A stretch of 64,000 nt of DNA from Escherichia phage VpaE1_ev108. The stretch is from the sequence record LR597658; one strand, given 5' to 3'. Position 1 is the first letter of the stretch, and every line of letters starts with the position of its first letter. Position numbers and translations under genes: made by a program. Of the stretch, positions 38,855-61,617 are shown piece by piece. The notes under the pieces are model-generated. The model ran no database searches and was not told the origin of the DNA. It saw only the letters and a list, made by a program, of their open reading frames with translations.

Positions 38855-39370
38855 TCAACTTAGTTTTGCAAACTCTCCGTGGAGTTTAATAGCAGCTTCA
38901 CAGTAAGCTTTATGGGCTTCTTCTTCTGTTGTGTATGTTCCTATATGTATGGTCTTGCCATTATGGTTAATCTGGGCTATCCACTTACCAGACTTGCTTC
39001 TACTTGTGCCTTTTAAGTTTTTTGATGTTCTAGGTTGTCTCCTATTAGACATGTTCTGCTCTTTTGTGGCCTCTCTTAGATTGTCCCAAGCGTTATTCAA
39101 ACCATCTCCATCTTTGTGGTCAATGTGTTTATCAGGCCACTTACCTGTCATCCAGAACCAAGCAATTCGGTGATTGCCTGTCCTGTATCCTAAAATCTGT
39201 GTGTGCATATACACACCAGACCTTGTGCGCTTAATTGCTCCGGCTTGGCTTCCAATAACCACCCTACTACTATGTGGAGGTCTGCCAATCCATGTTAAGA
39301 CCCCTGTTTCGGGGTCATAATCTAACCAAGACTTTAACTGTTCATGTGTGAATCCACAATCTCTCATCAA
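38855..39370 (-). CDS. HNH homing endonuclease
   Basis: 171 aa; HIDHKDGDGLNNAWDNLREATKEQN; paralogous to 61126..61617; sits immediately after the polymerase gene. Confidence 0.75.
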   Translation of the reverse strand: MMRDCGFTHEQLKSWLDYDPETGVLTWIGRPPHSSRVVIGSQAGAIKRTRSGVYMHTQILGYRTGNHRIAWFWMTGKWPDKHIDHKDGDGLNNAWDNLREATKEQNMSNRRQPRTSKNLKGTSRSKSGKWIAQINHNGKTIHIGTYTTEEEAHKAYCEAAIKLHGEFAKLS

Positions 39371-42066
39371 TGCACCTCATACCAGCTCTTACCAACCTTA
39401 CCTGTGCCAGTTACAAGCGTCTCACTCTTCAAACCTAAATTCTTAGATGCCTGACCATACATCCAGTCAGTTATGGCTTTAACTTCTTGAGTCATACTTT
39501 CTGGGCATTCCCAACTGTTTTCATCGTGGTATGCCAGCAAAAGCCTAGCACCGATTGCTGGTTTTCGTCCATTTAATTTTGTCAACCCTTCTTCACATGC
39601 TCTTCTACAAGCAAGGTTAATTGCCTCATTTTGAATCTGAGCCTCCGAACCCATAAGCAAATAATTCAATAACTTATGTGGAGATTTACACCACAACCAA
39701 GCTCCAGCAACCTTTACGAAGCCCCCTTTAGAGATTGCAGCGGTCTTACCAAACACCTCTTCAAGTGCCTTTTTAGTTGCTTTGTAGTCAGCTTCCAAGT
39801 CATCTAGCAGCTTCTTAATTTTAGGCAAACGAATAAAGTAAGTCTGTTTAGTCAGTGCACCTTCCTGAGTAGTTGCAGCTTTAATCGTCTTAGCAAACTT
39901 CTCATCACCTGCACCGAACAGCAGTGCATAGATACCATTCTTAGCTTTCTTACGGCCTTTGCTAATCTCATGGAGAAGGTTCTCATCCTGAGTAGCTCGA
40001 CAAGTCAAGATATCCTGCTCATCATTCAAGCTAAAGTAAATACTGTTCAATGTATGTGCATCAGTCCCTGAATAGACAACGTACAGGTCATTCTCAGAGT
40101 CATAGCGAAGGTACTTATCAATCTCTGGGTTCAGGTACTCATCAAAATGTTTGCAGTAATAGCGTCCATCTTCTTGACGAATGAACTCAATTTCTTCTTT
40201 ACCTTGCGTTACCGCTTTGGTGAAGTCTTTATCACCCATAAAGTTACAAAGAAGAACTAGCTGGGCTGAGTTCATATCTACAGAGACAACGTTAGTACCT
40301 TCCTCACAAATCCATACTGCCCTCATTGGTTCTCCATAGACAGCAGCACCAGACGGTACGTTTACAATACCATACTGTGTCATACGTCCAGTTGAAGTAC
40401 CAAACACCATTGCACCAGCACTAAGGCGACCATCAGGACGAATCTGGTTAAGCCAACCTTTTTCATCATCCTTTGAGTTCTCAATAGTTCTGCGTCGGTG
40501 CATCAAAGTATAGTACTTAGCAATCTTCTGTCCAAGCTCACCTTCAATCGTATCATAAGATGATTCAGTAAGTTTTGGTGAAGTACGGATTAAGCAAGGT
40601 TCAAGCAAATCTGTGTATTTCTTCACAGACCAGTTATGCTCGATGTACTGTACACCTTCATGTTCAACATAACTCAAACCACACCGCTCAACCATTTCCT
40701 GCCACTTAGGATGCTTTGTAATCATCTTTTTATTGTCTTTGAAACGACAAACTTTGACAGGGCGACCATCTGAGTCTTTCTTGTAATTCCAGTCATCTGG
40801 AACCCAACCAACTGATTTCAAGTAGTCTTTAACAACTGCTACCTGAGTCATACGAGAAACTTCAAACTCAATTGGTGTATATGGCGCATCAATCAAACCT
40901 GTGTAGCGACTTGACTCAAGTTCAAAGTGGTTAACAACGTGGCTGTTATAGTACTTCACAGTTTTGACTGTTTTTACTGGTTTCCAGTCTTTGCATTTCT
41001 TACCAATCTTTGCGTTCAACTCATTGCAAATTGCACGAGCATCCTTCATTGCTACAAAACCCTCCTTGTACTCTTCACCAGTTACAGAGTTGGTTGGCGT
41101 ATAGCAATTTCTCTTTTCAATGTTAAAAATCTTTGTAGTTGGCTTACCAAATGGTTTGATTTCGTATGTCTGCATCTCACCATTACGTACCTGCTGACGA
41201 TACTTTGTCTTAGGGTACTTGGTAATTCTTTTCAGTCCATCTGCATGACCAAATGTTTCAACATACTCATTCCAAGCTTTTGCAAACTCTTCTCCAGTGA
41301 CTTTACCTTTGGTCTTAATAGTTGGAGGTAGATGTGGTTCAACCTCTGAAGCAAGCTCATTAGTCAACTTGTCAAGCTCCTTTACATGGAACTCCATAAG
41401 CTCTTTATCAGCTTTCCAACCATTGATAGCTTGTTGACTCATCCAGAAAGATGTTTCTTTAGCTCGCATGTAAGTTTCATAAGTGTCTATACCACACTTC
41501 TTAAGCTTGAGATACTCGTTATCAAGTGCCCGTTTAGTTTTGGCGTTAATACGTATATCTTCTACAACACGAGTGAAGATTTCTGCATTCCACACACCCC
41601 AATGCTCAATCTCTGGTTTACGAACACCAACACGAGCACCCCATGCAGCCAAACCATGAGCACCTTTATAGCCCTTTGGAGTTGGTCTATCCATCCACTG
41701 AACACGAGACTGGATAAGAGAATCCTGAAAGAAATTACTCCACGGTTTACACTTTGGATTATCAAAGTTCCATAAATCAGGTGCAATGTGATTGAAAACC
41801 CACCAGTCATAACCGAGACCATTATGGATGCAAAGACGTTTTGCCTTTAACGCAAACTCAATACCTTCACGTAAGCCACCCTTAATGTACTTGGTATACT
41901 TGTGACCGAGGATAGGCTCATCTGTAAAGACCCATACAGGCGGCTCTTCATCGTCAGATTTATAGTCTGCGAAAGCCATTACGTGCACTTTAGTGAACTC
42001 AAGGAGTAAACCATCAGTTTCTGTATCACCAACTAAATGTAAGTTTTTAAAATCTACGTTTTCCAT
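39367..42066 (-). CDS. DNA polymerase, family A, with 3'-5' exonuclease domain
   Basis: Exo I VGDTETDG; motif A SVDMNSAQLVLL; motif B RKKAKNGIYALLFGAG; motif C LLAYHDE; likely start is M11 (ATG ending 42066) after RBS gagggag; track ORF extends to 42096. Confidence 0.85.
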   Translation of the reverse strand: MENVDFKNLHLVGDTETDGLLLEFTKVHVMAFADYKSDDEEPPVWVFTDEPILGHKYTKYIKGGLREGIEFALKAKRLCIHNGLGYDWWVFNHIAPDLWNFDNPKCKPWSNFFQDSLIQSRVQWMDRPTPKGYKGAHGLAAWGARVGVRKPEIEHWGVWNAEIFTRVVEDIRINAKTKRALDNEYLKLKKCGIDTYETYMRAKETSFWMSQQAINGWKADKELMEFHVKELDKLTNELASEVEPHLPPTIKTKGKVTGEEFAKAWNEYVETFGHADGLKRITKYPKTKYRQQVRNGEMQTYEIKPFGKPTTKIFNIEKRNCYTPTNSVTGEEYKEGFVAMKDARAICNELNAKIGKKCKDWKPVKTVKTVKYYNSHVVNHFELESSRYTGLIDAPYTPIEFEVSRMTQVAVVKDYLKSVGWVPDDWNYKKDSDGRPVKVCRFKDNKKMITKHPKWQEMVERCGLSYVEHEGVQYIEHNWSVKKYTDLLEPCLIRTSPKLTESSYDTIEGELGQKIAKYYTLMHRRRTIENSKDDEKGWLNQIRPDGRLSAGAMVFGTSTGRMTQYGIVNVPSGAAVYGEPMRAVWICEEGTNVVSVDMNSAQLVLLCNFMGDKDFTKAVTQGKEEIEFIRQEDGRYYCKHFDEYLNPEIDKYLRYDSENDLYVVYSGTDAHTLNSIYFSLNDEQDILTCRATQDENLLHEISKGRKKAKNGIYALLFGAGDEKFAKTIKAATTQEGALTKQTYFIRLPKIKKLLDDLEADYKATKKALEEVFGKTAAISKGGFVKVAGAWLWCKSPHKLLNYLLMGSEAQIQNEAINLACRRACEEGLTKLNGRKPAIGARLLLAYHDENSWECPESMTQEVKAITDWMYGQASKNLGLKSETLVTGTGKVGKSWYEVH

Positions 42067-42126
42067 TTTTACTCCCTCTAAAATCATTAACCTCATACAT
42101 TACTGCAAAAAATTATAAAAAGCAAG

Positions 42127-42160
42127 TTGACAATGTACTTGACAAGGTGTTAATCTTTGC
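42127..42160 (+). promoter_or_regulatory. tandem TTGACA boxes with conserved CTTGACAAGGTG 12-mer in divergent intergenic region
   Basis: agcaagTTGACAatgtacTTGACAaggtgttaatct; near-identical to 79-119. Confidence 0.5.
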
Positions 42161-42323
42161 GAAGTGGGTTTTTACTTAAAAGGTTACTTAACAGTTTAAC
42201 TATACAGATACTTTAAAACTCTTAAAAGATTATTTAATAGCTTTTAAAAAGCTTTAAAGTATAACGTATAGAATACGTTAAGATAAAAGATTAAAACTTA
42301 ATAGTTACTTAAAAGAGGCTTAC

Positions 42324-42746
42324 ATGCAGAAAATGTTTGTTCACCCAGACATAGCTGACTTTGTTAGAGCTTTGCAGAAGTTGGAAGAACTTGACATTGC
42401 TGCTCAACGGGAATATGCTCACCATCACAGGAGAATGGTTGATATACAACATGAAATAGAGTTGGCTGAAAACTATGAAGATGACTTAAAATGCTCTGTA
42501 TTTGAGCATATGAAAGATGTTGCTACAGCTAGACGTAAAGCTAAAGACACAGTTGCTTTACTAGATTCTCTTAAAAAGAGGTTGCAAAGTGGTACAGACC
42601 TGTGTAATCTAGCGTCACTGATTAATGATGTTGAAACTTCTTGGGATAGACATTACTATCCACGTTCTGAAAAGACACTTGACTTTTCTTCATCCGAAAA
42701 CTTAAAATGTTCTAGAAAGAAACTTAACCAACTGAGAGAGAAATAA
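42324..42746 (+). CDS. hypothetical protein
   Basis: 140-aa ORF. Confidence 0.65.
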   Translation: MQKMFVHPDIADFVRALQKLEELDIAAQREYAHHHRRMVDIQHEIELAENYEDDLKCSVFEHMKDVATARRKAKDTVALLDSLKKRLQSGTDLCNLASLINDVETSWDRHYYPRSEKTLDFSSSENLKCSRKKLNQLREK

Positions 42747-42747
42747 T

Positions 42748-43560
42748 ATGAATACCAATGTAGAACAAATGCTTGAAGAAAAAGGTATTGACGAAGCATT
42801 CTTAATCAATGCCGTAGAAAGCATGGCTATGATTCTTCGTGGAAACAACTATACAGAACAGTTTATGCCTGCAAGCTATAACCTGCCTAAAGACAAGTCT
42901 GATAACGGTGCTTTTGCAGAACAGGTTAATATGATGCTGTGTGACAAAACACTTGCTTTAGCATCTATTGTTGTAGGTGTTGATGCTCTTGCAGAGTTCA
43001 TTTTTTATGAGATGCAGAAAAATGACTATATTGCCATGACCTCTGAAGAAAAAGACTCGCTACTGCTCTTAGGTTATGATGAGCTAGTTAACCTATTAAT
43101 TTCGTCAACGAGTGCTGTTATGGCTGCTCTTGAGAAGCGCATGGAAGAGAAGCTTTCACGGTATGAAAAACTTGATTGGGGTGTAGAGGAATTAAACCCA
43201 CGAATCAAAGAGATTATCCAGCAAACCAAAGATTCTTTGGAAGAAGCTGTAAAAAATGATTCTGTAGCTGACATAGAGCCACTTCAGGTGAAAGTTGCAT
43301 TGATGATTCCAGCCATCTCCACGATGATGAATATCGTTGCACTAATCCAGCTTTCACAGATGATGGGCACAAGCATTGAGTTCATTGAGAGTATGACTGG
43401 TGGTGTGAGTATGCAAGCAATCAATGATGTTCTGGTGAGCATTGGTGCTTCAATCATTGAAGAGAAGCTGCGCATTAACTTTGGTGATGATTTTGTGAAG
43501 CAAATCTCAGCTATGGCTGAAAAAGAGTATTCACAGACTAATACTGACCAACTGCACTAA
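42748..43560 (+). CDS. hypothetical protein
   Basis: 270-aa ORF coupled to upstream gene. Confidence 0.65.
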   Translation: MNTNVEQMLEEKGIDEAFLINAVESMAMILRGNNYTEQFMPASYNLPKDKSDNGAFAEQVNMMLCDKTLALASIVVGVDALAEFIFYEMQKNDYIAMTSEEKDSLLLLGYDELVNLLISSTSAVMAALEKRMEEKLSRYEKLDWGVEELNPRIKEIIQQTKDSLEEAVKNDSVADIEPLQVKVALMIPAISTMMNIVALIQLSQMMGTSIEFIESMTGGVSMQAINDVLVSIGASIIEEKLRINFGDDFVKQISAMAEKEYSQTNTDQLH

Positions 43561-43577
43561 GTCTTTATAAACCTTAC

Positions 43578-43603
43578 AAGCCTCCTTAGTTGGGGGCTTT
43601 TTA
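43578..43603 (+). terminator. rho-independent terminator
   Basis: aagcctcc-ttagtt-gggggctt followed by ttttt. Confidence 0.6.
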
Positions 43604-43621
43604 GTAATTAAGGGAGATAGA

Positions 43622-44365
43622 ATGAGTAATATTATCGCATTTACTGGAAAGGCACGTTCTGGAAAAGACACCTCATGTTCTATTGTGAAGAACATCTTAG
43701 AGGATGAGCACGGCTACAATGTTGCTGTAATGGCCTTTGCAGACAACCTTAAACTGTCTGCATCAAAGATATTTGACCTGACTTGGAATGACCTGTATGG
43801 TGAAACTAAAGAGACTCCGCAGGTATTTGACTTATCATATCATGAACTGATGTTTAAAGTTACGGAAGCTATGGAGTTCACCTTCAGGGATGAACGTTAC
43901 CATATGGACTTCAAGCTTATGTCAGAGTTAACCGGACGATTAATCATGGAGCTTAAGAAGGTTGCTAAACCGACTCTATTGACACGTCTGGGGTTTAGCA
44001 AAAAGTATAAATTCTCATCAAGACAAATTCAACAGATTTGGGGTACTGAAGTTGTCCGTAAAGTAATGGGAGACAAGTTCTGGTCTAAAGACCTTGAAAA
44101 AAGAATGGTTAGATTCTATGAAAGTTGCTCACTTAGAAATCAATATGGTTTTGTCTTAATCAGTGATTTAAGATTTGACTCTGAAGCTGAGTGGCTGAGT
44201 AGATTTGCACACCAAACTATTGAAGTAAAAAGAGACAATGTGGATAAGATTTCATCACACGTTTCAGAAAATGGGCTATCCACCAAATATGAGCGTGACA
44301 TTATTCATAATAATGGTACTCTTACAGACCTTGAGAACAAGCTAAGAGCCATCATTAAAGTTTAA
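43622..44365 (+). CDS. deoxynucleoside monophosphate kinase (T4 gp1-like)
   Basis: 247 aa; N-terminal P-loop IIAFTGKARSGKDT. Confidence 0.6.
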   Translation: MSNIIAFTGKARSGKDTSCSIVKNILEDEHGYNVAVMAFADNLKLSASKIFDLTWNDLYGETKETPQVFDLSYHELMFKVTEAMEFTFRDERYHMDFKLMSELTGRLIMELKKVAKPTLLTRLGFSKKYKFSSRQIQQIWGTEVVRKVMGDKFWSKDLEKRMVRFYESCSLRNQYGFVLISDLRFDSEAEWLSRFAHQTIEVKRDNVDKISSHVSENGLSTKYERDIIHNNGTLTDLENKLRAIIKV

Positions 44366-44373
44366 AAGAGAGA

Positions 44374-44574
44374 ATGAAGATGAGAGTAAAAGACAATTTT
44401 AAAGTTATTGACCACCGTTTAGTGGAACTCTCATCTCTTTCCAATGAGGTAATGATTGAACGTCTTAAGAGAGTTGAATCACGAAGGAAAGAGATTGCAG
44501 ATGAAATTCATGAACTGGACAAGATTGAAAATGGATTGAAGGCAGAACTACAACGAAGAGGTGCTAATGTCTAA
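44374..44574 (+). CDS. hypothetical small coiled-coil protein
   Basis: 66-aa ORF overlapping primase start. Confidence 0.5.
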   Translation: MKMRVKDNFKVIDHRLVELSSLSNEVMIERLKRVESRRKEIADEIHELDKIENGLKAELQRRGANV

Positions 44575-46552
44575 AGGTCGTAAATTGAAAGAGGCTGGTC
44601 AGTTTGTTGGTCATTGCGCATGTCCACGTTGTGGTTCATCAGATGCTGGTTCAATCTATCATCATGACGATGATTCTTATTCAATGACTTGCTTTAGTTG
44701 TAACAAAGGTTTCCCAGAGTGGGATTTTGATAAAGGACAAATCGTGAGCACTTATTCTACTGGTTCAGACAATAAAAACCGTGCTTTCCGTGGAATGGAC
44801 TTAGAAGATGTAAAAGAAAACCTAGAAGCAATGGACTTAAAAGACAGGAAGATTCCTGCAAAAGTTCTTGAGCGTTTAGGTATCAAGGTTGACATTGACA
44901 GTGATGGTGAAATTGATGCGCATTTCTACCCAACTTACAAACGCAATGAAGATGGCAAGCTAGAGCATGTTGGCTACCGTGTTCGTCACCGTTACCCAGA
45001 AGACCATCCAAAAGAGCACCTACGTGGTAAGTTAAAAGACTTTTCTGGTGGTGTTGGAGACATTAAAGGTGAGCTGGCAATGTTCGGTTCATGGATTGCT
45101 CCAGAAGGTGGTAACCGTCTATTCATCTGGGAAGGTGAGATGGAATGTGCGACAGCAATCTATATGACTTCTCTTGCGATTAAAGACAAGTCTCGTCGTA
45201 AGAATTACTGTCACGTATCTGTTCCATCAGGTGCAAACATCAAGTCTATCAAAGATAACTATCAGTACATTACATCCTTTGATGAAATTTACTTGTGCTT
45301 TGATAACGATGAAGCAGGTGCTAAAGCCACTAAAGAGGCTGCTGGTATCCTCCCTATTGAGAAGGTTCGTTTATTCCAGTACCCAGAGGGTGTAAAAGAC
45401 CTTAACGAGTGGTGGACAAAGTTCTATAAAGAGAAAGATACAGTTCTGGAAGGATTTAAGCAGCGTATCTACAATGCACCTCGTTACTGTCCTGCTGGTA
45501 TCAAGAACTTCGCAGATGGTTTTGAGGCAATGAAGAATCGTGGTCAGATTCCATTGATTCCTTTCCCAGAATCTTTCGGAGATTTGAACAGACTGACTTA
45601 TGGTGGTTACGGTTTAGGTGAGATTACAACTCTGGCAGCACCATCTTCAGTGGGTAAATCTGCATACACTCGTGAAATGATTTATACTGCTTGGAAAGAT
45701 ACCGATTACAATATTGGTGTAATTCCTGTAGAGGATACCTATGAAGAGTTGATGGAGATGCTCTGTGCAATCCACCTGAGCAAGCAGATTTCTGAGATTC
45801 CTTATGACGAACGTGATTGGGATGAATTGAAGGAAGCACACGCAGAACTATCTAAAGGTCGTCGTATCCACATCGTAGACCATCAAGGGGCAATTGACCA
45901 AGATAACTTGCTGGAGTTTGTTGACTATCTTGTTAACAGCTTGGACTGTAAGATTATTATTCTTGACCCTATTACGTTGGCTCTGTCACGTTCAGATACT
46001 GATGAAGAGGAAGTTTTATCTGAGCTATTGCGTCGTTGTAAACGCTACCAGTATGCACAGGTAAACGTCTGTCACGTTCGTAAAAGTGCAGGTGGTCAGA
46101 AGGCTAACTCCGAAGGTGGAGATATCTCTGAAGAGGATATTAAAGGCTCTGGTGCGTATTTCCAGATTTCTATGAACAACATTCTGTTAATGCGTAACAA
46201 GGTTGACCCAGACCCTGTTAAGAAAAACTTGACAAAAATCAAGTTAACTAAGTGTCGTCGTCACGGTAAGTCAACGGGTATTGCTGGTCATACTTGGTAC
46301 AATCCAGATACAGGACGTCTCATTAAAGCATCTGGTTGTGGAGTTGACATTGATGGCGCAGCAGAAAATATTCGCCAACAGTTTGGTATTGGTGAAGCTG
46401 AAGACCATTACGATGACTCTTTGCCACATTATGAGGATGAAGTGTTTGACCGTGAGACTGGTGAAGTCTATACTGAAGAGCAGCGTCAAAGCTCAACGAT
46501 TCCACCTGTATTAAGTGAGGATGCAGATGACTGCCCATTCGAAACTGAGTGA
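44561..46552 (+). CDS. DNA primase/helicase (zinc-binding primase plus DnaB-like helicase)
   Basis: 663 aa; N-terminal zinc finger CACPRCGS ... CFSC; Walker A APSSVGKS. Confidence 0.8.
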   Translation: MLMSKGRKLKEAGQFVGHCACPRCGSSDAGSIYHHDDDSYSMTCFSCNKGFPEWDFDKGQIVSTYSTGSDNKNRAFRGMDLEDVKENLEAMDLKDRKIPAKVLERLGIKVDIDSDGEIDAHFYPTYKRNEDGKLEHVGYRVRHRYPEDHPKEHLRGKLKDFSGGVGDIKGELAMFGSWIAPEGGNRLFIWEGEMECATAIYMTSLAIKDKSRRKNYCHVSVPSGANIKSIKDNYQYITSFDEIYLCFDNDEAGAKATKEAAGILPIEKVRLFQYPEGVKDLNEWWTKFYKEKDTVLEGFKQRIYNAPRYCPAGIKNFADGFEAMKNRGQIPLIPFPESFGDLNRLTYGGYGLGEITTLAAPSSVGKSAYTREMIYTAWKDTDYNIGVIPVEDTYEELMEMLCAIHLSKQISEIPYDERDWDELKEAHAELSKGRRIHIVDHQGAIDQDNLLEFVDYLVNSLDCKIIILDPITLALSRSDTDEEEVLSELLRRCKRYQYAQVNVCHVRKSAGGQKANSEGGDISEEDIKGSGAYFQISMNNILLMRNKVDPDPVKKNLTKIKLTKCRRHGKSTGIAGHTWYNPDTGRLIKASGCGVDIDGAAENIRQQFGIGEAEDHYDDSLPHYEDEVFDRETGEVYTEEQRQSSTIPPVLSEDADDCPFETE

Positions 46553-46622
46553 TAGTTATAAAAGAGAGGGGTTCACACCCTTCTTTGAAGAAAAAAGTTT
46601 AAATAAATTTCAGGAAGAGTGT

Positions 46623-46651
46623 TTGACAAAGATTGATAGGTTCTATAGAAT
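46623..46651 (+). promoter_or_regulatory. sigma70-like promoter TTGACA-17-TAGAAT
   Basis: TTGACA 46623-46628, 17-nt spacer, TAGAAT 46646-46651. Confidence 0.6.
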
Positions 46652-46802
46652 GCTCTACATGAAATGTGATGGAGGTGTTGAGGTAGAAGAAAAGTTCCAT
46701 CACAGTATTATCACAGTCACTATTACTATACCTGAACATAATATTGGTTGGCTGTTTATAATGAAAGAAAATGTGTTTGAATATCAAGTATATCGGAGAA
46801 TA

Positions 46803-46952
46803 TCATGAAACACTCTAAAGCATTTGAAAAAGTTTTTGGGGATTCCTTAAAAGCCACTGCTGGAAAACCAGCAAAATACTATGAAGAAAAACGTGTAAGA
46901 ACTGGAAAAACTGCACGTAAAGCAGCTTCTAAAGATAAGCACAACTTCCAGT
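46803..46952 (+). CDS. small Lys-rich basic protein (49 aa), absent from ORF track
   Basis: ATG 46803 after RBS ggagaatatc; MKHSKAFEKVFGDSLKATAGKPAKYYEEKRVRTGKTARKAASKDKHNFQ; below the 60-aa cutoff. Confidence 0.5.
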
Positions 46953-46959
46953 AATTAAT

Positions 46960-47946: not shown

Positions 47947-48987
47947 ATGGAGAAGTACACATTAACAAAACTTCCCGATTCAGTTACACATGTTTTTATT
48001 GACTCTGACAGTATTGCCTATAAAGGTGCTTGTGTAGTTGAGAAAGCAAAATATAAATACGTCAATAAACTCACAGCAGAAGAATCTGAGCCATTTGATA
48101 ATGCGAAAGATGCTGCAAGATGGTTAGCAGACCAGAGAATCCTTGTGGAAGAGCTTGGCCTGACATTTGATGAAGATGAATGGGAAAGACAGACTTGGAA
48201 AGAAGCTAAGAGTGAAAAAGAAGCTATCATGGCTACTCAACAGGTTCTTCAGGAATGGCTTAAGGTGGTTGGTAAAGAGAGAACTTGGGTAGGTTATTTA
48301 ACAGAGAAAGGTGTACATAAACATAAAGACATTAAAGGTCTTGAGCACCAATATCAAGGTAACCGTAAAGATGCTGTCACACCAACGCACTTAGTTGCTT
48401 GTCGTGAGTATCTTCTGTCAAGACCAGAGTTCAAACTCTTAAGGGGAGGCTTCGAAGCCGATTCAATCGTAATTGCTAAAGCTGAAAAGATGGGTAAGAA
48501 AGCTGCTCTTATGAGTATTGACAAAGACCTTCGACAAGCTGAAGGGACTTATTGTATTGATATGACTTATGAAAAATCACCACTAATTTTTATTGCTGAC
48601 AATAATGTTGGTGATATCTGGGATTGTCCTATCAAATCAAAACCAAAAGCTGCAAAAACAGTTGGTGTAGGTTTTAAATTCTTGTGTTATCAGGCTGTTG
48701 CTGGAGATAATGCAGACAACTACTTCGGCCTAAAAGGTGCTGGTAAAGTAGCTGTGATGAATGCTTTAGAGGGTAAAGAGACCTACAAAGAGTGTCTTGA
48801 TGCTATCTATGAACTTTATGCTAAAAAAGACTCTTATACCTATGTGTCATGGGATGGACAGACTATTACAAAGACACCATTAGAGTTAATGGAACAGCAT
48901 TTTTTCCTAGCTTATCAAGAGAGAAATCCAAAAGATAATTTCTCTTTTAAGAAATATAATTGGGAGCCGTGTATGAATGAAGATTAA
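47947..48987 (+). CDS. 5'-3' exonuclease / RNase H (FEN family, T4 RNase H-like)
   Basis: 346 aa; motifs HVFIDSDSIAY, FEADSIVIAKAEKMGKK, AALMSIDKDLRQ in T4 RNase H order. Confidence 0.6.
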   Translation: MEKYTLTKLPDSVTHVFIDSDSIAYKGACVVEKAKYKYVNKLTAEESEPFDNAKDAARWLADQRILVEELGLTFDEDEWERQTWKEAKSEKEAIMATQQVLQEWLKVVGKERTWVGYLTEKGVHKHKDIKGLEHQYQGNRKDAVTPTHLVACREYLLSRPEFKLLRGGFEADSIVIAKAEKMGKKAALMSIDKDLRQAEGTYCIDMTYEKSPLIFIADNNVGDIWDCPIKSKPKAAKTVGVGFKFLCYQAVAGDNADNYFGLKGAGKVAVMNALEGKETYKECLDAIYELYAKKDSYTYVSWDGQTITKTPLELMEQHFFLAYQERNPKDNFSFKKYNWEPCMNED

Positions 48988-49474
48988 AGGATTTGGCAAT
49001 TGCCCTACCTATGGTCATTGGGTATCTTTATGCGGGGAAGTTGACCCCACTAAACATTTTGGTTTTGTCTATTTAGTACACTGTAAGAAAACCGGACAAT
49101 ATTATATAGGAAAGAAACAGTTTAATAGCGTGACAAAAAGAAAAGTTGCTGGGAAGACTCGTAAGAAGGTAGTCACTAAGGAAAGTGATTGGATGACTTA
49201 CGAGACTTCTTCTGAGTATATCAAAAAAGATATTGAAAGCTTTGGAAAAGAATCTTTTGACTTTTATATTATTCAAACCTACTACACAAAAGGTGGCCTA
49301 GTCTATGGTGAAGCAAACCTTCAACATAAATTCGATGTAATGACAAAAAGGATTGACTCGAAGCTCAGACTCTTCTACAATGCCAATATCGCAGCAATTA
49401 AGTTTATTACTAAAGAAACTTATGAAGATGCTGAAAAAAGAATCCATAAGGTAATGAAAGCAAACTGTGCTTGA
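48977..49474 (+). CDS. GIY-YIG domain endonuclease-like protein
   Basis: 165 aa; N-terminal FGFVYLVHCKKTGQYYIGKK (GIY-YIG-like). Confidence 0.55.
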   Translation: MKIKGFGNCPTYGHWVSLCGEVDPTKHFGFVYLVHCKKTGQYYIGKKQFNSVTKRKVAGKTRKKVVTKESDWMTYETSSEYIKKDIESFGKESFDFYIIQTYYTKGGLVYGEANLQHKFDVMTKRIDSKLRLFYNANIAAIKFITKETYEDAEKRIHKVMKANCA

Positions 49475-54774: not shown

Positions 54775-55016
54775 TGACTTATGTAATTTACTCCAAAACT
54801 GGATGCCCTCAGTGTGAGACTGCAAAGAATTTTGCAAAAGCTCGTGGTATTGACCATGTTGTGAGAATGTTAGGGCAGGGTTATGAACTGTCAGACCTGA
54901 TGGATATTGCACAGATGCCAGTTCGTCAGATGCCATTCATCATGAAAACTGATGGGCAAAACCTAAAACCTGTTGGTACGCTACAGAATTTTATGGCAGA
55001 GGTGAATAATGCTTAA
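54774..55016 (+). CDS. glutaredoxin-like protein (NrdH-like)
   Basis: 80 aa; CPQC active-site motif near N-terminus. Confidence 0.7.
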   Translation: MTYVIYSKTGCPQCETAKNFAKARGIDHVVRMLGQGYELSDLMDIAQMPVRQMPFIMKTDGQNLKPVGTLQNFMAEVNNA

Positions 55017-55215
55017 ACGCATTTGGGAAGGTTTGGTTGTTGATGCACCAGCTATTGTGATTGGTATGCTTATCGTTAACCTATTTACTGATTTTGAACA
55101 AGGTTCATTGTTTGGAGCCATGTTACTATGGGTTATCTTTGAAATATTAGAGATACAGTTAGGCATCACTGAAAAACTAAGAAAACTCGTTTCAAAGTTT
55201 TCTAAAAAGATTTAA
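55009..55215 (+). CDS. small membrane protein
   Basis: 68 aa; hydrophobic helices. Confidence 0.45.
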   Translation: MLKRIWEGLVVDAPAIVIGMLIVNLFTDFEQGSLFGAMLLWVIFEILEIQLGITEKLRKLVSKFSKKI

Positions 55216-55221
55216 AATGAA

Positions 55222-55245
55222 AGGGTCTCTTCGGAGACCTTTTTA
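55222..55245 (+). terminator. rho-independent terminator (UUCG tetraloop)
   Basis: agggtctc-ttcg-gagacct followed by ttttt. Confidence 0.7.
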
Positions 55246-55263
55246 GCATGTAAAGGGGCAATA

Positions 55264-57408
55264 ATGAACAAAGTACAGATTATTAAAAAGAATGGCTCAC
55301 TTGAAGAACCTGATATCAAAAAAGTTTTAGCAGCAGTAACTAAGTCAGCTAACAGGGTTGGATATAAAGAACTCCCACCAGATGTTACCCAAGCTCTTGA
55401 GTCAGCATTTATGAGGATTCTGGTAAAGTCCACTAAGCAGAATAATTTACTCATCTCAGTCAATGATATTCACAGCATTGTTGAGGGTGCTTTGGCAGAA
55501 GTCAATCACGAGATTTATGAGTCTTACTCAACATATAGAAATTACCGGAAAGAGGTTGCTCAAAATTGGGATGAGCTTTACCAAAAGACTAGAGACACGC
55601 TCTTCTTAGGTGACCGTGAAAACGCTAACTTTGACAGCAGTTTAATTTCTACAAAAGGTTCAATTATTCGTGGTTACCTGACTAAAGAAATCTTTAAGCA
55701 GTACCATTTAACACCAGAGGAACTTGAAGCCATTGAAAAAGGGTTTATCTATATCCACGATTTAAGAGACCTGATTTTTGGCGGCATTAACTGTTGCTTG
55801 TTTGACATTGGTAAAGTACTGAAAGGTGGCTTTGAGATGTCTGGCATCGAATACTGTGAACCGAAGTCTGTGCTGTCAGCCTTACAGGTTATTGGTGATG
55901 TAGTTCTTTCAGCAACTGCACAGCAATTTGGTGGTTTTACTTTAGCAGAGATTGATAAGGTACTCATACCGTATGCTAAGAAGTCTCTACGCTATCATGC
56001 TGAGAAAGCAGCATCTTATGGTATTCCTAAAGAACATTACCACAATTATGTCATGGAGCAGCTACAGATTGAACTGACTCAAGGTTTCCAGTCACTTGAA
56101 ATGAAACTAAACACTGTACCTTGTAGTCGTGGGGATTTTGCATTTACAACTTTAACATTTGGGTTGCTCGACTCAGATATGTCTAATGAAGACAACCGAC
56201 TACAATACATGATTGCAAGTACTCTCCTAGATGTCCGTATGAATGGACAAGGTAAGAGCAAGAAGCCTGTTGTATTCCCTAAACTGGTTTATATTTATGA
56301 CCAGAAGAGACATAATGAGAATATCTGTCAAGGCCACCTGTACAGTAAAGCTATAGAGTGTTGCTCTAAAGCGATGTATCCAGATTTCTTAAGTGTATCT
56401 GGTCATGGTGCTGTAGCAGAGGCTTTTGAGCGTTCTGGCAAGGTTATTTCGCCGATGGGTTGCCGAGCGTTCTTATCTCCGTATCTTAACGAGAATGGGG
56501 AAGAGTTCTACGTTGGTCGTGCTAACATTGGTGCTGTATCTTTGAACTTACCAATGATTTACCAGTATTCTAAAGAGAATGGTTTAGATTTCTGGAAAGA
56601 GCTTGATAAGTACCTAGAGATGATTCGCAGCTTCCACAAGAAACGCTACGAAATGATTGCTAATATGCCAGCAAGTTCTAACCCTCTTGCATTCACACAA
56701 GGTGGTCTGTACAAAGGGACTAAGAAACCTACTGACAAGGTTGGTTGGGATATCGTGAAGTCCTTCACAGCTTCTTTTGGGGTTACTGCTCTTGATGAAC
56801 TGTCTGTTCTTGCTGAAGGTAAACGACTTCATGAAGTTGGAAGATATAGTTTTGCATACGATGTTCTGGAATACATCAACATGAAAACTGAAGAGTTTAA
56901 GAACGAAGATGGCTTCTTGTATGCGGTATATGGTACTCCAGCAGAATCACTTTGTGGAACTCAGTTAAAACAGTTCAGAGATATGTTTGGCGTTATTAAA
57001 GGTGTCTCTGACAAGGAATACTTTACAAACAGTTTCCATATGAATGTTGCAGCAGACATCTCACCATTTGAGAAGCAGGACTTAGAAGAGCCATTCTTCC
57101 ATATCTGTAGAGGTGGCAGAATCCAGTATGTAAGGGTAGCTAACCCAGAAAACTTAACAGCACTTAAAAGTTGTATTACCAGAGGGATGTTGAAGGGTTT
57201 TTATCAGGGACTTAACTTTGACTTAGCAATCTGTGAACATTGTGGTAACAGACCAAAGGCTGATGTTGAAGAATGTGAGGTTTGCCATTCACATGATATC
57301 TCTGTGATTAACAGGGTGTGCGGGTATCTTGGGTGGACCAAGATTAAAGGTGAATCCCGAATGAACGATGCAAAAATCGCTGAGATTCGTGATAGAGTCT
57401 CTATGTAA
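55264..57408 (+). CDS. nrdD: anaerobic ribonucleoside-triphosphate reductase (class III)
   Basis: 714 aa; N-terminal ATP-cone-like; C-terminal Cys cluster CEHCGN ... CEVC and glycyl-radical-like VINRVCGYLGW. Confidence 0.8.
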   Translation: MNKVQIIKKNGSLEEPDIKKVLAAVTKSANRVGYKELPPDVTQALESAFMRILVKSTKQNNLLISVNDIHSIVEGALAEVNHEIYESYSTYRNYRKEVAQNWDELYQKTRDTLFLGDRENANFDSSLISTKGSIIRGYLTKEIFKQYHLTPEELEAIEKGFIYIHDLRDLIFGGINCCLFDIGKVLKGGFEMSGIEYCEPKSVLSALQVIGDVVLSATAQQFGGFTLAEIDKVLIPYAKKSLRYHAEKAASYGIPKEHYHNYVMEQLQIELTQGFQSLEMKLNTVPCSRGDFAFTTLTFGLLDSDMSNEDNRLQYMIASTLLDVRMNGQGKSKKPVVFPKLVYIYDQKRHNENICQGHLYSKAIECCSKAMYPDFLSVSGHGAVAEAFERSGKVISPMGCRAFLSPYLNENGEEFYVGRANIGAVSLNLPMIYQYSKENGLDFWKELDKYLEMIRSFHKKRYEMIANMPASSNPLAFTQGGLYKGTKKPTDKVGWDIVKSFTASFGVTALDELSVLAEGKRLHEVGRYSFAYDVLEYINMKTEEFKNEDGFLYAVYGTPAESLCGTQLKQFRDMFGVIKGVSDKEYFTNSFHMNVAADISPFEKQDLEEPFFHICRGGRIQYVRVANPENLTALKSCITRGMLKGFYQGLNFDLAICEHCGNRPKADVEECEVCHSHDISVINRVCGYLGWTKIKGESRMNDAKIAEIRDRVSM

Positions 57409-57418
57409 AACTTGACAA

Positions 57419-57457
57419 GGTGATGTGGGTCTTGATAGGCTTACATCACCTTTTTTA
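57419..57457 (+). terminator. rho-independent terminator overlapping a CTTGACAAGGTG box
   Basis: ggtgatgt-loop-acatcacc followed by tttttt. Confidence 0.7.
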
Positions 57458-57562
57458 TTGGATGTTAGATATGGCAGAGAGTATTATTGGGTTGTTCATA
57501 GGTTCTGTCTTACTAGGGTTCTTTTTAGGACTCTCTTATTGTGAATTGAAAGGTAAGTTAAA

Positions 57563-57763
57563 ATGTTTAAGATATCAAAAGCGTTGATATACATACTCCA
57601 TATTCTAGTCTTCTTCTTTGGGGTTAGTGTTATGGTATGGGGTTTTTCAGACCCACAATGGGGTTTCTCATATCATGGTCAGATGGATTTATGGTCATGC
57701 TTCAAACCATTTTTAGGGTTAGTCATAGCATTCAGTGCATTACCAACTAAGGTGAAATTATGA
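57563..57763 (+). CDS. small membrane protein
   Basis: 66 aa; two hydrophobic helices. Confidence 0.45.
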   Translation: MFKISKALIYILHILVFFFGVSVMVWGFSDPQWGFSYHGQMDLWSCFKPFLGLVIAFSALPTKVKL

Positions 57764-58155
57764 TTAAGTTGAGCCAAAAACAGTTAGAGTGGATTAAAGA
57801 TTATGCCTTAGAGTGTGGCTCTTGTGAAAAGAATCACGTAAGATACTCAACATTCCACACGGTCTTCACATTGTATATCGGCGACAATGTTCTAAGTGAT
57901 TCTGTAGAAGATGGTGTAGCATTGCCTAATGAATTGCTTGACAAATTAGCTGTAGTCACTGGAACTTGGTCTGAAGAAGATGGTCACGAACTATCTGATG
58001 ATGTTGTCTTCTACAGTCTTGAAAACATCATGAATCCAGAGTACATTATGCTAATGACTTGCGCACAAGATTGTGTACCATTACAAAACTTCATTAAAGA
58101 GCACTGTGAAGAATTTATTACTAAACAGGTTCCTTGTCAGGTGGTGTTTGAATGA
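57760..58155 (+). CDS. hypothetical acidic protein
   Basis: 131-aa ORF. Confidence 0.55.
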   Translation: MIKLSQKQLEWIKDYALECGSCEKNHVRYSTFHTVFTLYIGDNVLSDSVEDGVALPNELLDKLAVVTGTWSEEDGHELSDDVVFYSLENIMNPEYIMLMTCAQDCVPLQNFIKEHCEEFITKQVPCQVVFE

Positions 58156-58214
58156 GTAAAACAATTCGAAGAAAAGGTTTAAAGAACGTTCATATGTATT
58201 GGTGAGGTAACTAG

Positions 58215-58700
58215 ATGAATTACATGGAGATTAGACCATTTGACACAGCTAATGGTGAAGGGGTTCGTGTAAGCCTCTTCGTAGCTGGTTGCAAGCATCA
58301 CTGTGAAGGCTGCTTTAACAGGGAGTCTTGGAAGTTTAATGCTGGTAAAGTATTTACTTATGCAAACCTCTACGGAATCATCCAGCTAATGGGCGATAAT
58401 GCCGTCAGTGGGTTGTCGATACTTGGTGGAGAACCTCTGGATGATAGAAATATTCAAGAGGTTACAGACATATGCAAACGTGTTAAAACTGTTTACCCAG
58501 AGAAGACTATATGGCTCTGGACAGGTTTTCAACTACACGAAAAGATTCACTTAGACGTGATGAAATATGTTGACGTGGTGATTGATGGTAAGTATGATTC
58601 ATCTAAACCAACAGTTAAACCGTATCGTGGTTCAGATAACCAAAACCTCTGGAGAAAAGAGTACGGATGGCAAGGTGATTGTCAGTGGAGAGCAGAGTGA
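58215..58700 (+). CDS. nrdG: anaerobic RNR activating protein (radical SAM)
   Basis: 161 aa; CKHHCEGC (CxxxCxxC) near N-terminus. Confidence 0.75.
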   Translation: MNYMEIRPFDTANGEGVRVSLFVAGCKHHCEGCFNRESWKFNAGKVFTYANLYGIIQLMGDNAVSGLSILGGEPLDDRNIQEVTDICKRVKTVYPEKTIWLWTGFQLHEKIHLDVMKYVDVVIDGKYDSSKPTVKPYRGSDNQNLWRKEYGWQGDCQWRAE

Positions 58701-58796
58701 TTATTCTGGCAAATGGACTAAGGTATAACTCCAATTGGTATCACTGAAGAAGAACTTCATAAGTCCTGTATTAAACTTTAATGAGAGAGACTAAAA

Positions 58797-59063
58797 ATGG
58801 GAATTTTAGGTAATATGAAAGCTGGATTCTTGAAGGCACTGGAAAAAGCAGCAGCAATTGTTTCTATGACTGGAAAGCAGGTCGGTGTAGATGCTTCAGC
58901 GGTTGCACAGGTTCTTGCAAGCCAAATTGAACAGCAGCCTTACATCTACGTAGGACGTGGTAAAGGTGGTAAGAAACAAGCCCACCGCCAATCTGGTGCA
59001 GCAGCTATTAAACGAGCAGCTAAGAAAGCTCGTAACCGTAAACGTAACAAGAAGGTTAAATAA
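58797..59063 (+). CDS. hypothetical protein with highly basic C-terminus
   Basis: 88 aa; C-terminus KRAAKKARNRKRNKKVK. Confidence 0.55.
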   Translation: MGILGNMKAGFLKALEKAAAIVSMTGKQVGVDASAVAQVLASQIEQQPYIYVGRGKGGKKQAHRQSGAAAIKRAAKKARNRKRNKKVK

Positions 59064-59065
59064 CC

Positions 59066-59386
59066 ATGAGCAAAGTTTATAACACTCGTAAATTACAGAT
59101 TTTCGTACTGTGCCAGTTTATGGCTAAAGAATACAACTTCTACTATTGTGGTACAGGTTTTATTAGCGATGATGATGGCTCGTACCTCCCATTCAAAGAG
59201 GCTGTAAAACTCTTCAATGAAGAGAAAAGTTCTAAGAAAGATATTGAAAAGGTTAAGCTAACCTACAGCAAGAAAGATAAGAAGATTATCTGCCTAGATA
59301 ACTTTGTGAAAGTTACTGGAGAAGCAAAAGAGTTTATGGATGAGAGTGAGATTTCATTCACAAGCATCTTGAAAGTAGCTCAGTAA
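59066..59386 (+). CDS. hypothetical protein
   Basis: 106-aa ORF. Confidence 0.55.
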   Translation: MSKVYNTRKLQIFVLCQFMAKEYNFYYCGTGFISDDDGSYLPFKEAVKLFNEEKSSKKDIEKVKLTYSKKDKKIICLDNFVKVTGEAKEFMDESEISFTSILKVAQ

Positions 59387-59396
59387 ACAGATACTA

Positions 59397-59424
59397 TAAG
59401 GGGACTGTAAAGGTTCCCTTTTTA
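59397..59424 (+). terminator. rho-independent terminator
   Basis: ggggac-tgtaaag-gttccc followed by tttttatttt. Confidence 0.6.
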
Positions 59425-59437
59425 TTTTGGAGGTAAA

Positions 59438-59953
59438 ATGTATCTGTCAAACCTGAAACGTTCGGTTGCAATGTCAGTTCTAAGACTCAGCTTTGATGAG
59501 CGTCAAGAGTTTATAGACTCCCACAAATATGACCCTTCAAATTCTAATCACATGGTTCTTTGGAATCGTGATAACTTCCGTGAAAGAGCACTTGTCCGTT
59601 ATTACCCACACTACACAATAGATAACCTGTATGAATGGTGTGTTGTGAAGAACACCATTGCAACACTGAACAATCTTTGCAGGTATACGGGTAAGCAAAC
59701 ATTTACATTAGGTCATCACAAACCTGTTACAAAAGGTGGTGAACATCACTGTGCAAACTGGTTTATCCAAACTAAAGCTGATAACCAGAAGCAAGGAAAT
59801 AACCTTCTAAGCACCCCTAAGATGACCTATGAAGAGCAAGAGAAATATATCAAAAATAATATGCCAGATGTGCTTGACAACAACTATACAGATTTGGCAA
59901 TATCTCTCCTGTTGAAGTTCGAGACAGTTTATAGGGCAACTTATAATGGCTAA
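59438..59953 (+). CDS. HNH endonuclease-like protein
   Basis: 171 aa; FTLGHHKPVTKGGEHHCANWFIQTKADNQKQGN. Confidence 0.55.
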   Translation: MYLSNLKRSVAMSVLRLSFDERQEFIDSHKYDPSNSNHMVLWNRDNFRERALVRYYPHYTIDNLYEWCVVKNTIATLNNLCRYTGKQTFTLGHHKPVTKGGEHHCANWFIQTKADNQKQGNNLLSTPKMTYEEQEKYIKNNMPDVLDNNYTDLAISLLLKFETVYRATYNG

Positions 59954-60224
59954 AGAAAAGTGGGAGATTTTATCATTAGTTAGCGAAGGTGGTAATGGTT
60001 GTGAGATGTACATGATACGAGGTCATGTTCCAGAACCAATTGCACTTGAGATGGTAAACAATTTTACAGATGGTTCATACAAAGATTTAGGAGAACCAAC
60101 TGTCAAGCAACAATGGGTAAAGCCTGTACCAGACAGCACAGGCAACTGTAGTGTGCTTTATCACGTTGTAGACCCTGCAAAATGCAAATCTGCAATGGCA
60201 GTAACAAACGTAACTTTTGATTGA
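59946..60224 (+). CDS. hypothetical protein
   Basis: 92-aa ORF. Confidence 0.5.
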   Translation: MAKEKWEILSLVSEGGNGCEMYMIRGHVPEPIALEMVNNFTDGSYKDLGEPTVKQQWVKPVPDSTGNCSVLYHVVDPAKCKSAMAVTNVTFD

Positions 60225-60235
60225 GAGAGAAAACT

Positions 60236-61117
60236 ATGAAAACATCTATCCGTGTTACAGTTCATTCACCCACTAAAGGGACTCACGAAGAAGAGTTTAA
60301 CATCATCCAATTCCCTTCTGGTGAGATTGGTGGCCACTTTTCACAAGAGCTTGTTGATTTTACTGCTTATGCAGCATCATCTATTAACAATGTGGTTATG
60401 ATTGTAAAGGGTTATGACAAAGACACACTGTTTGCTGTGGCACTGGCTAAAGAAGCAATTGACGATTTAGTTCCTCATGATTATGCCCTGAAGACTGTCA
60501 TTTTTTACTACTTGCCAAATGCACGATACGACCGTCACATGTTTAAAGGCGACGCAGCAGCTTTAAAGGTTTTTGCTAAACAGGTAAATGCAATGGGATT
60601 TGGTGCAGTCTGTGCAGTTGACCCTCACAGTTATGTACCAGATAACCTGTTTAACTGCTTCCAAAGTATTCCTCAAAAGGAGATTGCAGTCCACTATGCA
60701 AATGACCCTCTAATTGATTACTTAGTAGCCCCAGATGCAGGTGCTTCTAAGAAGATTGCAGAGACTGCTAAAGAGGTGGATAAACCATATATCACAATGT
60801 CTAAGGTGCGTAACCTTAAGACTGGTGAAATTACTGGTATGCGAATCCTTGACGATGTTGATTTGACAGATAAAACTGTCATGATTCTGGATGATATTTG
60901 TGATGGAGGTCGAACCTTCATAGAAGCAGCCAAACATCTTCGTGAAGCAGGTGCAAAACGTGTGGAACTCTATGTAACTCATGGTATTTTCTCTAAAGAT
61001 GTTGAAAACTTGCTTGACAATGGTATTGACCATATCTACACTACAAACTCTTTAGGGGAAGCTAAAGACCGTGGCTTAACACATTATAGCCAAGTTACTG
61101 TAGCAAACCTTGATTAG
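60236..61117 (+). CDS. ribose-phosphate pyrophosphokinase family protein (Prs-like; candidate ADP-ribose pyrophosphokinase of a NAD+ reconstitution pathway)
   Basis: 293 aa from ATG 60236 (track start 60221 is TTG); PRPP-binding-loop-like VMILDDICDGGRTF. Confidence 0.7.
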   Translation: MKTSIRVTVHSPTKGTHEEEFNIIQFPSGEIGGHFSQELVDFTAYAASSINNVVMIVKGYDKDTLFAVALAKEAIDDLVPHDYALKTVIFYYLPNARYDRHMFKGDAAALKVFAKQVNAMGFGAVCAVDPHSYVPDNLFNCFQSIPQKEIAVHYANDPLIDYLVAPDAGASKKIAETAKEVDKPYITMSKVRNLKTGEITGMRILDDVDLTDKTVMILDDICDGGRTFIEAAKHLREAGAKRVELYVTHGIFSKDVENLLDNGIDHIYTTNSLGEAKDRGLTHYSQVTVANLD

Positions 61118-61125
61118 GTAACAGT

Positions 61126-61617
61126 ATGAATAAGGGTTATTTTGAAAGATACCTAATATATGAACCAGATACAGGTTTATTAATTTGGAGAGTAACCCTT
61201 TGCAGTACCGCTATTGCTGGTAATGTGGCTGGCACAAGGTCTAAGAAGGGTTATATCCAAGTCCAGATAAATAAGAAGAGGTACTATGCACATAATATCG
61301 CATGGATTATGTCTGGAGGTGAGATACCAAGTGGATATGAGATAGACCACATAGACCTTGATAAATCCAATAATAAGTTGGAGAATTTAAGACTTAGCAC
61401 AAAGTCACAAAATCAGAGGAATAGGGGTATATACAAGAATAATAAAACTGGTGTGAAGGGTGTAAGTTTTTGTAAACAAACAGGTCTTTACAAAGCAAGA
61501 GTCATGCTTTACCATAAAGAATACTTTTGTGGAAGATTTAAAACGGTAGAAGAAGCAAAAGAAGCTGTAATTAAAAAGCGAATAGAACTTCATGGTGAGT
61601 TTGCAAGACATAACTAA
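61126..61617 (+). CDS. HNH homing endonuclease inserted between the Prs-like and NAMPT-like genes
   Basis: 163 aa; HNIAWIMSGGEIPSGYEIDHIDLDKSNNKLENLRLSTKSQN; paralog of 38855..39370. Confidence 0.75.
   Translation: MNKGYFERYLIYEPDTGLLIWRVTLCSTAIAGNVAGTRSKKGYIQVQINKKRYYAHNIAWIMSGGEIPSGYEIDHIDLDKSNNKLENLRLSTKSQNQRNRGIYKNNKTGVKGVSFCKQTGLYKARVMLYHKEYFCGRFKTVEEAKEAVIKKRIELHGEFARHN

Follow-up and report, generated by a model that had tools for sequence, protein, structure and literature searches.

Two probable homing endonuclease genes and two fixed nuclease genes in the Felix O1-like phage VpaE1_ev108

We analyzed a 64,000-nucleotide stretch of Escherichia phage VpaE1_ev108 (LR597658; hereafter the window), in which a sequence-only reading had described four free-standing homing endonucleases beside essential genes. 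Comparison with related genomes divides these genes into two pairs. We are confident that two genes encoding HNH_3 and AP2 domains, one directly downstream of the DNA polymerase gene (the pol site) and one between prs and nadV (the Prs site), would both be free-standing homing endonuclease genes, whereas a GIY-YIG nuclease gene and the HNH-like open reading frame (ORF) that begins at 59438 (ORF 59438) would be fixed, vertically inherited nuclease genes. The earlier description therefore holds for the HNH_3-AP2 genes, which are polymorphic cassettes, each present in ~20-25% of ~250-300 matching relatives, and fails for the other two genes, which are near-universal and syntenic.

All four ORFs were found at the coordinates given for them, within a 24-kb stretch that shares 94-96% identity with numerous published genomes of Felixounavirus (Felix O1-like myoviruses, Ounavirinae). 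This stretch is matched by 280 phage records, 213 of which cover at least 80% of it, and its gene order matches that of Felix O1. The presence of each ORF was scored by querying it, together with 500-bp flanks, against ~50,000 phage records, cassette boundaries were taken from local alignments of 23 fetched loci, and divergence was scanned by a 200-bp sliding comparison with five full-length relatives, for which the background was ~96-98% identity. The gene-order comparison that had been proposed with the sequence-only reading showed both HNH_3-AP2 genes to be presence/absence polymorphic, even among relatives that are ~96% identical. The proposed search for divergence in the flanking genes also gave a positive result: endonuclease-linked differences were observed in the prs stop codon, in codon 2 of nadV and in the last codons of the polymerase gene, and a trough of identity was observed at the polymerase 3' end.

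The pol-site protein matched Pfam HNH_3 (PF13392; E = 1.3e-14, 53.9 bits) and AP2 (E = 2e-9, 38.1 bits against a Pfam cutoff of 33.3), and the Prs-site protein matched HNH_3 (E = 1.7e-19, 69.6 bits; the HNH_3 cutoff is 24.8) and aligned with its pol-site paralog through the AP2 region. Both proteins have an intact DH..N..N motif and fall in PHROG 99 'HNH endonuclease' (4e-64 for the pol-site protein and 3e-68 for the Prs-site protein). They are 38% identical over 161 residues (E = 5e-27), with the HNH and AP2 parts both aligned, which bears out the earlier statement that the two are paralogs with a common HNH core. By tblastn, they are the sole members of their HNH family in the 64 kb. No further homing endonuclease genes were found in the window, either by tblastn over the whole 64 kb or from the colinearity of positions 1-38000 with the annotated phage ASO1B.

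The pol-site gene lies on the minus strand at 38855..39367, and its start is likely the ATG at 39367 rather than the TTG at 39370. This ATG overlaps the polymerase stop codon (TGATG), suggesting translational coupling between the two genes. At the other end, the endonuclease stop codon, TGA, sits within a TTGACA hexamer that genomes lacking the gene also have; we note the hexamer as a motif only and make no promoter claim for it. In the relatives fjerdesal, BPS15Q2, VpaE1_ev035, typing phage 11 and Mordin, which lack the gene, the alignment runs to 38858 and resumes at 39363, so that the mobile cassette comprises 38859-39362, 504 bp in place of 2 bp. The empty site was seen in many records, with a span of 1014 bp compared to 1516 bp for the query.

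The window's pol-site allele was found in 49 records, and LF82P5 has a 100% identical copy of the cassette. In approximately 109 more records, the match is limited to the final 65-143 nt of the cassette, as these records carry other HNH alleles. At least four alleles occupy this site, namely the type shared by the window, ASO1B, Andreotti and NBEco004, FelixO1 ORF95, that of VpaE1_ev78, and that of ekra and Alf5; they are 39-52% identical in protein, which is about the distance between paralogs at other sites. Some of these alleles are nearly the same over the first ~78 nt and the last 66-143 nt, with a middle that cannot be aligned. VpaE1_ev78 is 96.3% identical to the window over 24 kb, yet its pol-site allele is only 47% identical in protein. 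On this comparative evidence, the pol site is a hotspot for HNH genes. Just downstream of the endonuclease gene lies a 69-aa ORF (38594-38803) with no family match that is not present in all relatives: typing phage 11, PC79-13, vB_SeBD_211 and LF110P1 lack it.

The DNA polymerase gene itself (39367..42096, minus strand, so labelled in relatives) is divergent beside this hotspot, over ~39363-40300 at its 3' end. Identity at 39300-40300 fell to 70-86%, and synonymous divergence (dS) over the last 900 bp of the gene reached 1.54 in comparison with FelixO1. The polymerase C-terminus reads ..WYEVH* in genomes with the endonuclease gene and ..WLEVH* in genomes without it. In ASO1B, the pol-site allele is that of the window (98% identity) and the polymerase end is diverged, indicating that breakpoints fall at the boundary of the endonuclease gene, as reported for other phages (PMC10448857). 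In a separate observation, the polymerase gene, intact in the window, is broken by an 'endonuclease VII'-like ORF in BPS15Q2 (Felixounavirus; fetched locus 2566-3328) and in PC79-13 (Suspvirus; fetched locus 2346-2828), and the two copies of this ORF share 98.8% identity across the genera.

The second cassette (61116..61617, plus strand; ORF 61126-61617) lies between the ribose-phosphate pyrophosphokinase gene prs (60221..61117, plus strand, so labelled in relatives) and the nicotinamide phosphoribosyltransferase gene nadV (61632..63413, plus strand). Genomes without the endonuclease gene align to 61115 and resume at 61618, and the 502-bp cassette takes the place of ~32 bp that hold a terminator-like hairpin, GGGGCTTAAAAGCCCC followed by T's. 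The cassette was found in 63 of about 277 matching records, the rest having a clean empty site (1023 bp compared to 1492 bp for the query), and when the cassette was queried alone, the same number of records was returned, each with one copy and always at the prs-nadV position. LF82P3, which is 96.2% identical to the window over 24 kb, does not have it.

Both flanks of this cassette carry substitutions linked to its presence. The prs stop codon is TAG in the six pattern-matched genomes with the cassette and TGA or TAA in all five genomes without it, while nadV codon 2 is AGT in seven of seven genomes with the cassette and ACT in five of five without it; the base preceding the nadV ATG also differs between the two groups. 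The same junction pattern was observed within Mooglevirus, in the comparison of Mijalis with Maleficent. A disrupted target or a short co-conversion tract would be expected to leave such changes. Over the next 900 bp of nadV, genomes with the cassette are no more alike among themselves than they are to genomes without it, and no long co-conversion tract is therefore visible at this site.

The divergence of the Prs cassette between genera is also out of step with that of its surroundings. In the comparison of the window with Mijalis, dS was 0.32 for the endonuclease gene, compared to 0.77 for prs and 1.05 for ORF 59438, and the cassette is ~90% identical in nucleotide sequence in SUSP1 (Suspvirus) and Moogle (Mooglevirus) against a background of ~75%. 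In addition, a 56%-identical homolog of the Prs-site gene is found upstream of nadV in Pectobacterium phage Arno18. This low divergence across genera, together with the Arno18 homolog, points to horizontal movement to the same target. The cassette boundaries are base-identical in two genera.

These results bear on whether the two HNH genes might be ordinary accessory genes, the patchiness of which stems from repeated deletion or generic recombination. Homing is deduced here from comparison only, nearby small ORFs such as 38594-38803 also come and go without a nuclease, and mosaicism is widespread in Felix O1-like genomes, which have troughs in the 5' part of prs (60300-60700) and at 42900-43100 (71-84% identity against ~96%) that show no correlation with a nearby endonuclease gene. 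We nevertheless consider this explanation very unlikely, because it does not account for cassette boundaries that are base-identical across genera, junction substitutions that are perfectly linked to endonuclease presence, the occupation of one site by several unrelated alleles from a single nuclease family, or a Prs cassette whose divergence between genera is far below that of its flanks. Furthermore, the combination of HNH_3 and AP2 is the architecture of an established family of homing endonuclease genes (PMC10448857).

The sampled copies of the endonuclease genes were all intact, with ratios of nonsynonymous to synonymous substitution (dN/dS) of 0.12-0.19, indicative of purifying selection. 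This result would also fit HNH proteins that serve the phage directly, as weapons against competing phages or as helpers in packaging or replication, with mobility being secondary. The apparent coupling of the pol-site gene to the polymerase gene at the TGATG overlap is consistent with such service, as are carrier benefits of phage homing endonuclease genes that a recent report describes (PMC13096335). However, ~40% of relatives (an estimate from sampled rows) have no HNH gene at the pol site and ~75% are missing the Prs-site gene; with so many relatives lacking one or the other, neither gene is needed for growth. Moreover, neither gene lies near the terminase gene, unlike packaging-associated HNH genes. 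Direct service as the primary role of these proteins therefore appears quite unlikely to us.

A third HNH hotspot is represented in the window by its empty allele (48955..48970, plus strand), with the junction at ~48962/48963 in the last codons of the exonuclease gene that precedes the GIY-YIG gene. A ~490-bp HNH cassette is found at this point, between TATAATTG and GGAGCC, in FelixO1 (ORF106), ASO1B, Andreotti and ekra but not in the window, the junction of which is therefore empty. The final ~10 exonuclease codons are rewritten by the cassette, and it occurs as two HNH alleles that are only 53% identical in protein. In the presence query for the GIY-YIG gene, the subset of records with a longer locus spanned 1989-1992 bp compared to 1498 bp for the query. 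A trough of 77-84% identity covers the exonuclease 3' end and the GIY-YIG 5' end (48500-49300) in FelixO1, ASO1B and Andreotti, which are three of the four local HNH carriers.

By analogy with the Seg and Mob enzymes of T4, homing of the two window cassettes might proceed as follows. During co-infection, the endonuclease would cut the allele of a relative that lacks the gene, near the insertion point. Candidate targets are the polymerase 3' end or the junction downstream of it for the pol-site enzyme, and the prs-nadV intergenic hairpin or the start of nadV for the Prs-site enzyme. Recombinational repair from the genome that carries the gene would then copy the ~500-bp cassette together with a short flank. 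The insertion and the linked substitutions would destroy the target in the carrier, which would be protected for that reason.

The GIY-YIG gene (48977..49474, plus strand) presents a different picture, and we regard it as a fixed core gene of the Ounavirinae that encodes a single-domain nuclease of the SegE family. The sequence-only reading placed it after an RNase H-like gene, and the upstream gene is indeed labelled RNaseH in some relatives, and exodeoxyribonuclease or 5'-3' exonuclease in others. The 165-aa protein matches Pfam SegE_GIY-YIG (1.5e-28) and keeps the hallmarks of the family (GFVY, an 11-residue spacing to YIG, R62, E112 and N135), with the catalytic Tyr, Tyr, Arg, Glu and Asn all present. 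The 123-residue catalytic profile covers residues 21-138, no domain beyond it was found with Pfam, and the structural model shows the C-terminus as one helix. The best fold matches were to I-TevI and to a GIY-YIG restriction enzyme. Of 298 records, 257 have the gene in the same place, among them Mooglevirus and Suspvirus, in which its divergence equals the genome background; the remaining matches are to distant genera (e.g. Erwinia phages), in which the aligned piece is the gene itself. Its dN/dS was 0.03-0.04, as low as that of the polymerase gene and nadV. The product is called 'NAD synthetase' in RefSeq, PHROG 447 and many records; we detected no such domain in it, and as the SegE-type GIY-YIG domain is the only one found, this name appears unfounded. 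We also considered a link to T4 EndoII, which no sequence or fold match in PDB searches supported.

ORF 59438 (59438..59953, plus strand) is an orphan HNH-like gene with a ββα-Me motif that is conserved and near-core in Felix O1-like phages. Of 274 records, 238 contain it, Mooglevirus and Suspvirus being among these at ~74% nucleotide identity, and its rare absences represent larger deletions, such that the neighbouring ORF is also gone in BPS17L1. Its dN/dS was ~0.13. The earlier designation of the protein as HNH-like held at the level of profiles and motifs, but no Pfam match above threshold was obtained. The protein falls in PHROG 3500, which has no assigned function (7e-93), and weakly matches PHROG 2214 'HNH endonuclease' (7.5e-7). 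Its family has the invariant motif TLGHH..GG.HH..NW.IQ..DNQ.Q, and a family profile searched against 1.84 billion proteins found only 18 cluster representatives, one of which is a bona fide HNH/HNH_5 protein that aligned exactly over its HNH motif (E = 9e-5). The HNH region of the NCBIfam IscB model gave an E value of 0.008. The top Foldseek matches were mostly HNH domains (Cas9 HNH, Gme HNH nickase, IscB and McrA), all at E values of at least 0.1 and none significant. Nothing useful came from PDB sequence searches, whether with the proteins of both fixed genes or with the profiles of their families. A likeness of 59438-59605 (residues 11-56) to the Staphylococcus protein A B-domain repeat LSFDERQEFIDSHKYDPSNS was rejected, as the matches were to repeat designs in the PDB whose repeats inflate the summed score, while the E value of a single stretch exceeded 1; we consider it spurious and probably due to chance. 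Two further features were observed beside this gene: a terminator-like hairpin at 59398-59420, just upstream, and, in VpaE1_ev78, an annotation of the homologs of ORF 59438 and of the next ORF (59946-60224) as one fused 786-bp gene (fetched locus 22236-23021).

The sequence-only reading had named presence at identical positions in all relatives as the observation that would speak against mobility, and this is nearly what we found for the GIY-YIG gene and ORF 59438. Near-universal presence, background-level divergence and low dN/dS indicate that both would be vertically inherited, selected genes. All four genes could in principle still be selfish, if these two were homing endonuclease genes that swept to fixation in the Ounavirinae and are still purely parasitic. 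The GIY-YIG protein does belong to the SegE family of phage homing nucleases, its best fold matches are to I-TevI and a restriction enzyme, and many GenBank records label its gene 'GIY-YIG homing endonuclease'; ORF 59438 has an HNH-type motif, and both genes lie between metabolic genes, as homing endonuclease genes do. However, a fixed homing endonuclease gene should decay because no empty targets are left for it, and the dN/dS of 0.03-0.04 for the GIY-YIG gene shows no such decay. Likewise, the divergence of these genes between genera equals the genome background, which indicates vertical descent, the short GIY-YIG protein has no detectable DNA-binding domain past its catalytic profile, and we saw no clean empty sites; where ORF 59438 is absent, the larger deletions take its neighbour too. 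Thus, we consider it unlikely that all four genes are selfish.

Most likely, the fixed genes are former homing nucleases, or relatives of such nucleases, that are now retained for a function in phage DNA metabolism. A more specific proposal, that the SegE-family GIY-YIG protein and ORF 59438 are domesticated descendants of homing nucleases with a core function in all Felix O1-like phages, is one that we put forward tentatively, at somewhat less than even odds. If it is true, they might nick or degrade host DNA to feed the adjacent nucleotide-salvage genes, for example, or process replication or recombination intermediates, and the GIY-YIG gene would be a conserved anchor beside which a mobile HNH cassette repeatedly lands.

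Several observations weigh against our division into mobile homing endonuclease genes and fixed nuclease genes. The classical homing life-cycle predicts some decaying endonuclease remnants, and we found none; three relatives with pol sites of intermediate length carry intact HNH alleles, and the intermediate lengths are explained by a separate 200-bp ORF indel. At the pol site, the haplotypes of the polymerase 3' end do not correspond one-to-one with the endonuclease alleles, as seen in ASO1B. At the Prs site, the endonuclease-linked differences reach only ~20 bp, the long co-conversion tract that we sought being absent, and the AP2 match of the Prs-site protein (20.9 bits) lies under the Pfam cutoff. 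At the third hotspot, ekra has the HNH gene and nearly no trough (98% identity at 48500-48900 and 90% at 48900). The structural models of the fixed proteins had modest predicted local distance difference test (pLDDT) scores: 72 for the GIY-YIG protein, with no significant fold match, and 68 for ORF 59438, the model of which has a strand-strand-helix element around the motif. More generally, the case for homing is built on comparative genomics, from which we infer cleavage, the target sites and homing itself.

With respect to the wider layout, the minus-strand genes in this region are, in order, DNA ligase, small ORFs, the HNH gene and DNA polymerase, and the plus-strand genes are deoxynucleoside monophosphate kinase, primase/helicase, exonuclease, the GIY-YIG gene, MazG, nrdA/B, nrdD/G, small ORFs, prs, the HNH gene and nadV. 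ORF 59438 does not directly follow nrdG (58215-58700), as had been stated, since two small ORFs intervene (58797-59063 and 59066-59386). The second of these, of 106 aa, carries the label 'HNH (homing) endonuclease' in wV8, BPS17L1 and Danish wastewater phages; its only Pfam match is DUF7390 (1e-16) and it has no HNH signal, and the label is probably a propagated mis-annotation. The nrdD gene (55264-57408) is uninterrupted in the window, whereas that of Andreotti is split by an insertion, presumably an intron, that carries a different homing endonuclease (fetched locus 19445-20276). Scans for promoters and terminators around the endonuclease genes gave nothing above shuffle expectation. Elsewhere in the window, ARAGORN identified an array of 26 tRNA genes at 2263-7237, colinear with the annotated tRNA region of ASO1B.

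Altogether, our results confirm homing endonuclease cassettes as the main source of small-scale differences in gene content and of local recombination boundaries in Felix O1-type phages. Their relevance is to phylogenies and to the engineering of therapeutic or diagnostic Felix O1-type phages, and goes little beyond housekeeping. Two annotation problems are flagged, namely the GIY-YIG gene as 'NAD synthetase' and the DUF7390 ORF as 'HNH endonuclease'. The pairs of empty and occupied alleles, which differ by few linked substitutions, are ready substrates for mapping the recognition sites of the two HNH-AP2 enzymes, and the fixed nuclease genes are reasonable candidates for studying the domestication of homing nucleases.

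The finding is already known in kind and in instance, given the published account of Felix O1, the established HNH-AP2 family, the annotation of these nuclease genes in GenBank records and the identical pol-site cassette of LF82P5. Our analysis adds the separation of the four genes into a mobile and a fixed pair, cassette boundaries resolved to the base together with the substitutions linked to them, and the empty third hotspot. Six HNH endonuclease genes of Felix O1 were described as free-standing by Whichard et al. (2010; PMC3185647), who excluded inteins and made no division of the nuclease genes into mobile and fixed. Felix O1 belongs to the same genus and has the same loci: its ORF128 is the ortholog of 61126-61617 (90% amino acid identity), and its ORF107 and ORF125 are the orthologs of the GIY-YIG gene and ORF 59438, respectively. 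ORF95 occupies the same position downstream of the polymerase gene, where the window's allele is only 40% identical to it in amino acids, and ORF106 is missing in the window, in which the exonuclease/GIY-YIG site is empty. Later genome papers showed that the number of homing endonucleases varies within the genus (PMC8300805).

Homing endonuclease genes of the HNH-AP2 type are concentrated around the genes for polymerase and ribonucleotide reductase, and they serve as markers of recombination boundaries (Barth et al. 2023, PMC10448857). The 'IPA-HNH' genes of ICP1 described there resemble those of the window in having an N-terminal HNH and a C-terminal AP2 domain, in being free-standing, in lying by DNA polymerase and nucleotide-metabolism genes, and in being located at the boundaries of recombination tracts. 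They differ in that the ICP1 proteins are too divergent for the HNH_3 profile, which the window's proteins match directly (PMC10448857). Our literature searches found no biochemical characterisation of Felix O1-type HNH-AP2 proteins.

The free-standing homing endonuclease genes of T4 (Seg, GIY-YIG; Mob, HNH) are likewise intergenic cassettes beside essential genes that are polymorphic among relatives, and they spread by cutting a nearby allele that lacks the gene, with co-conversion of flanking markers; the HNH subfamily and the DNA-binding module differ from those of the window's HNH genes. Seg proteins typically have a C-terminal DNA-binding region. By comparison with this general picture of Seg proteins, the SegE-family GIY-YIG gene of the window is not polymorphic and its product is without such a region. 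T4 endonuclease II (DenA) is a short single-domain GIY-YIG enzyme that is used by the phage itself and encoded by a core gene among nucleotide-metabolism genes. Both DenA and the window's GIY-YIG protein are small, have no separate DNA-binding domain and are the products of core genes that lie among nucleotide-metabolism genes in a virulent phage, a likeness that we regard as a functional analogy only.

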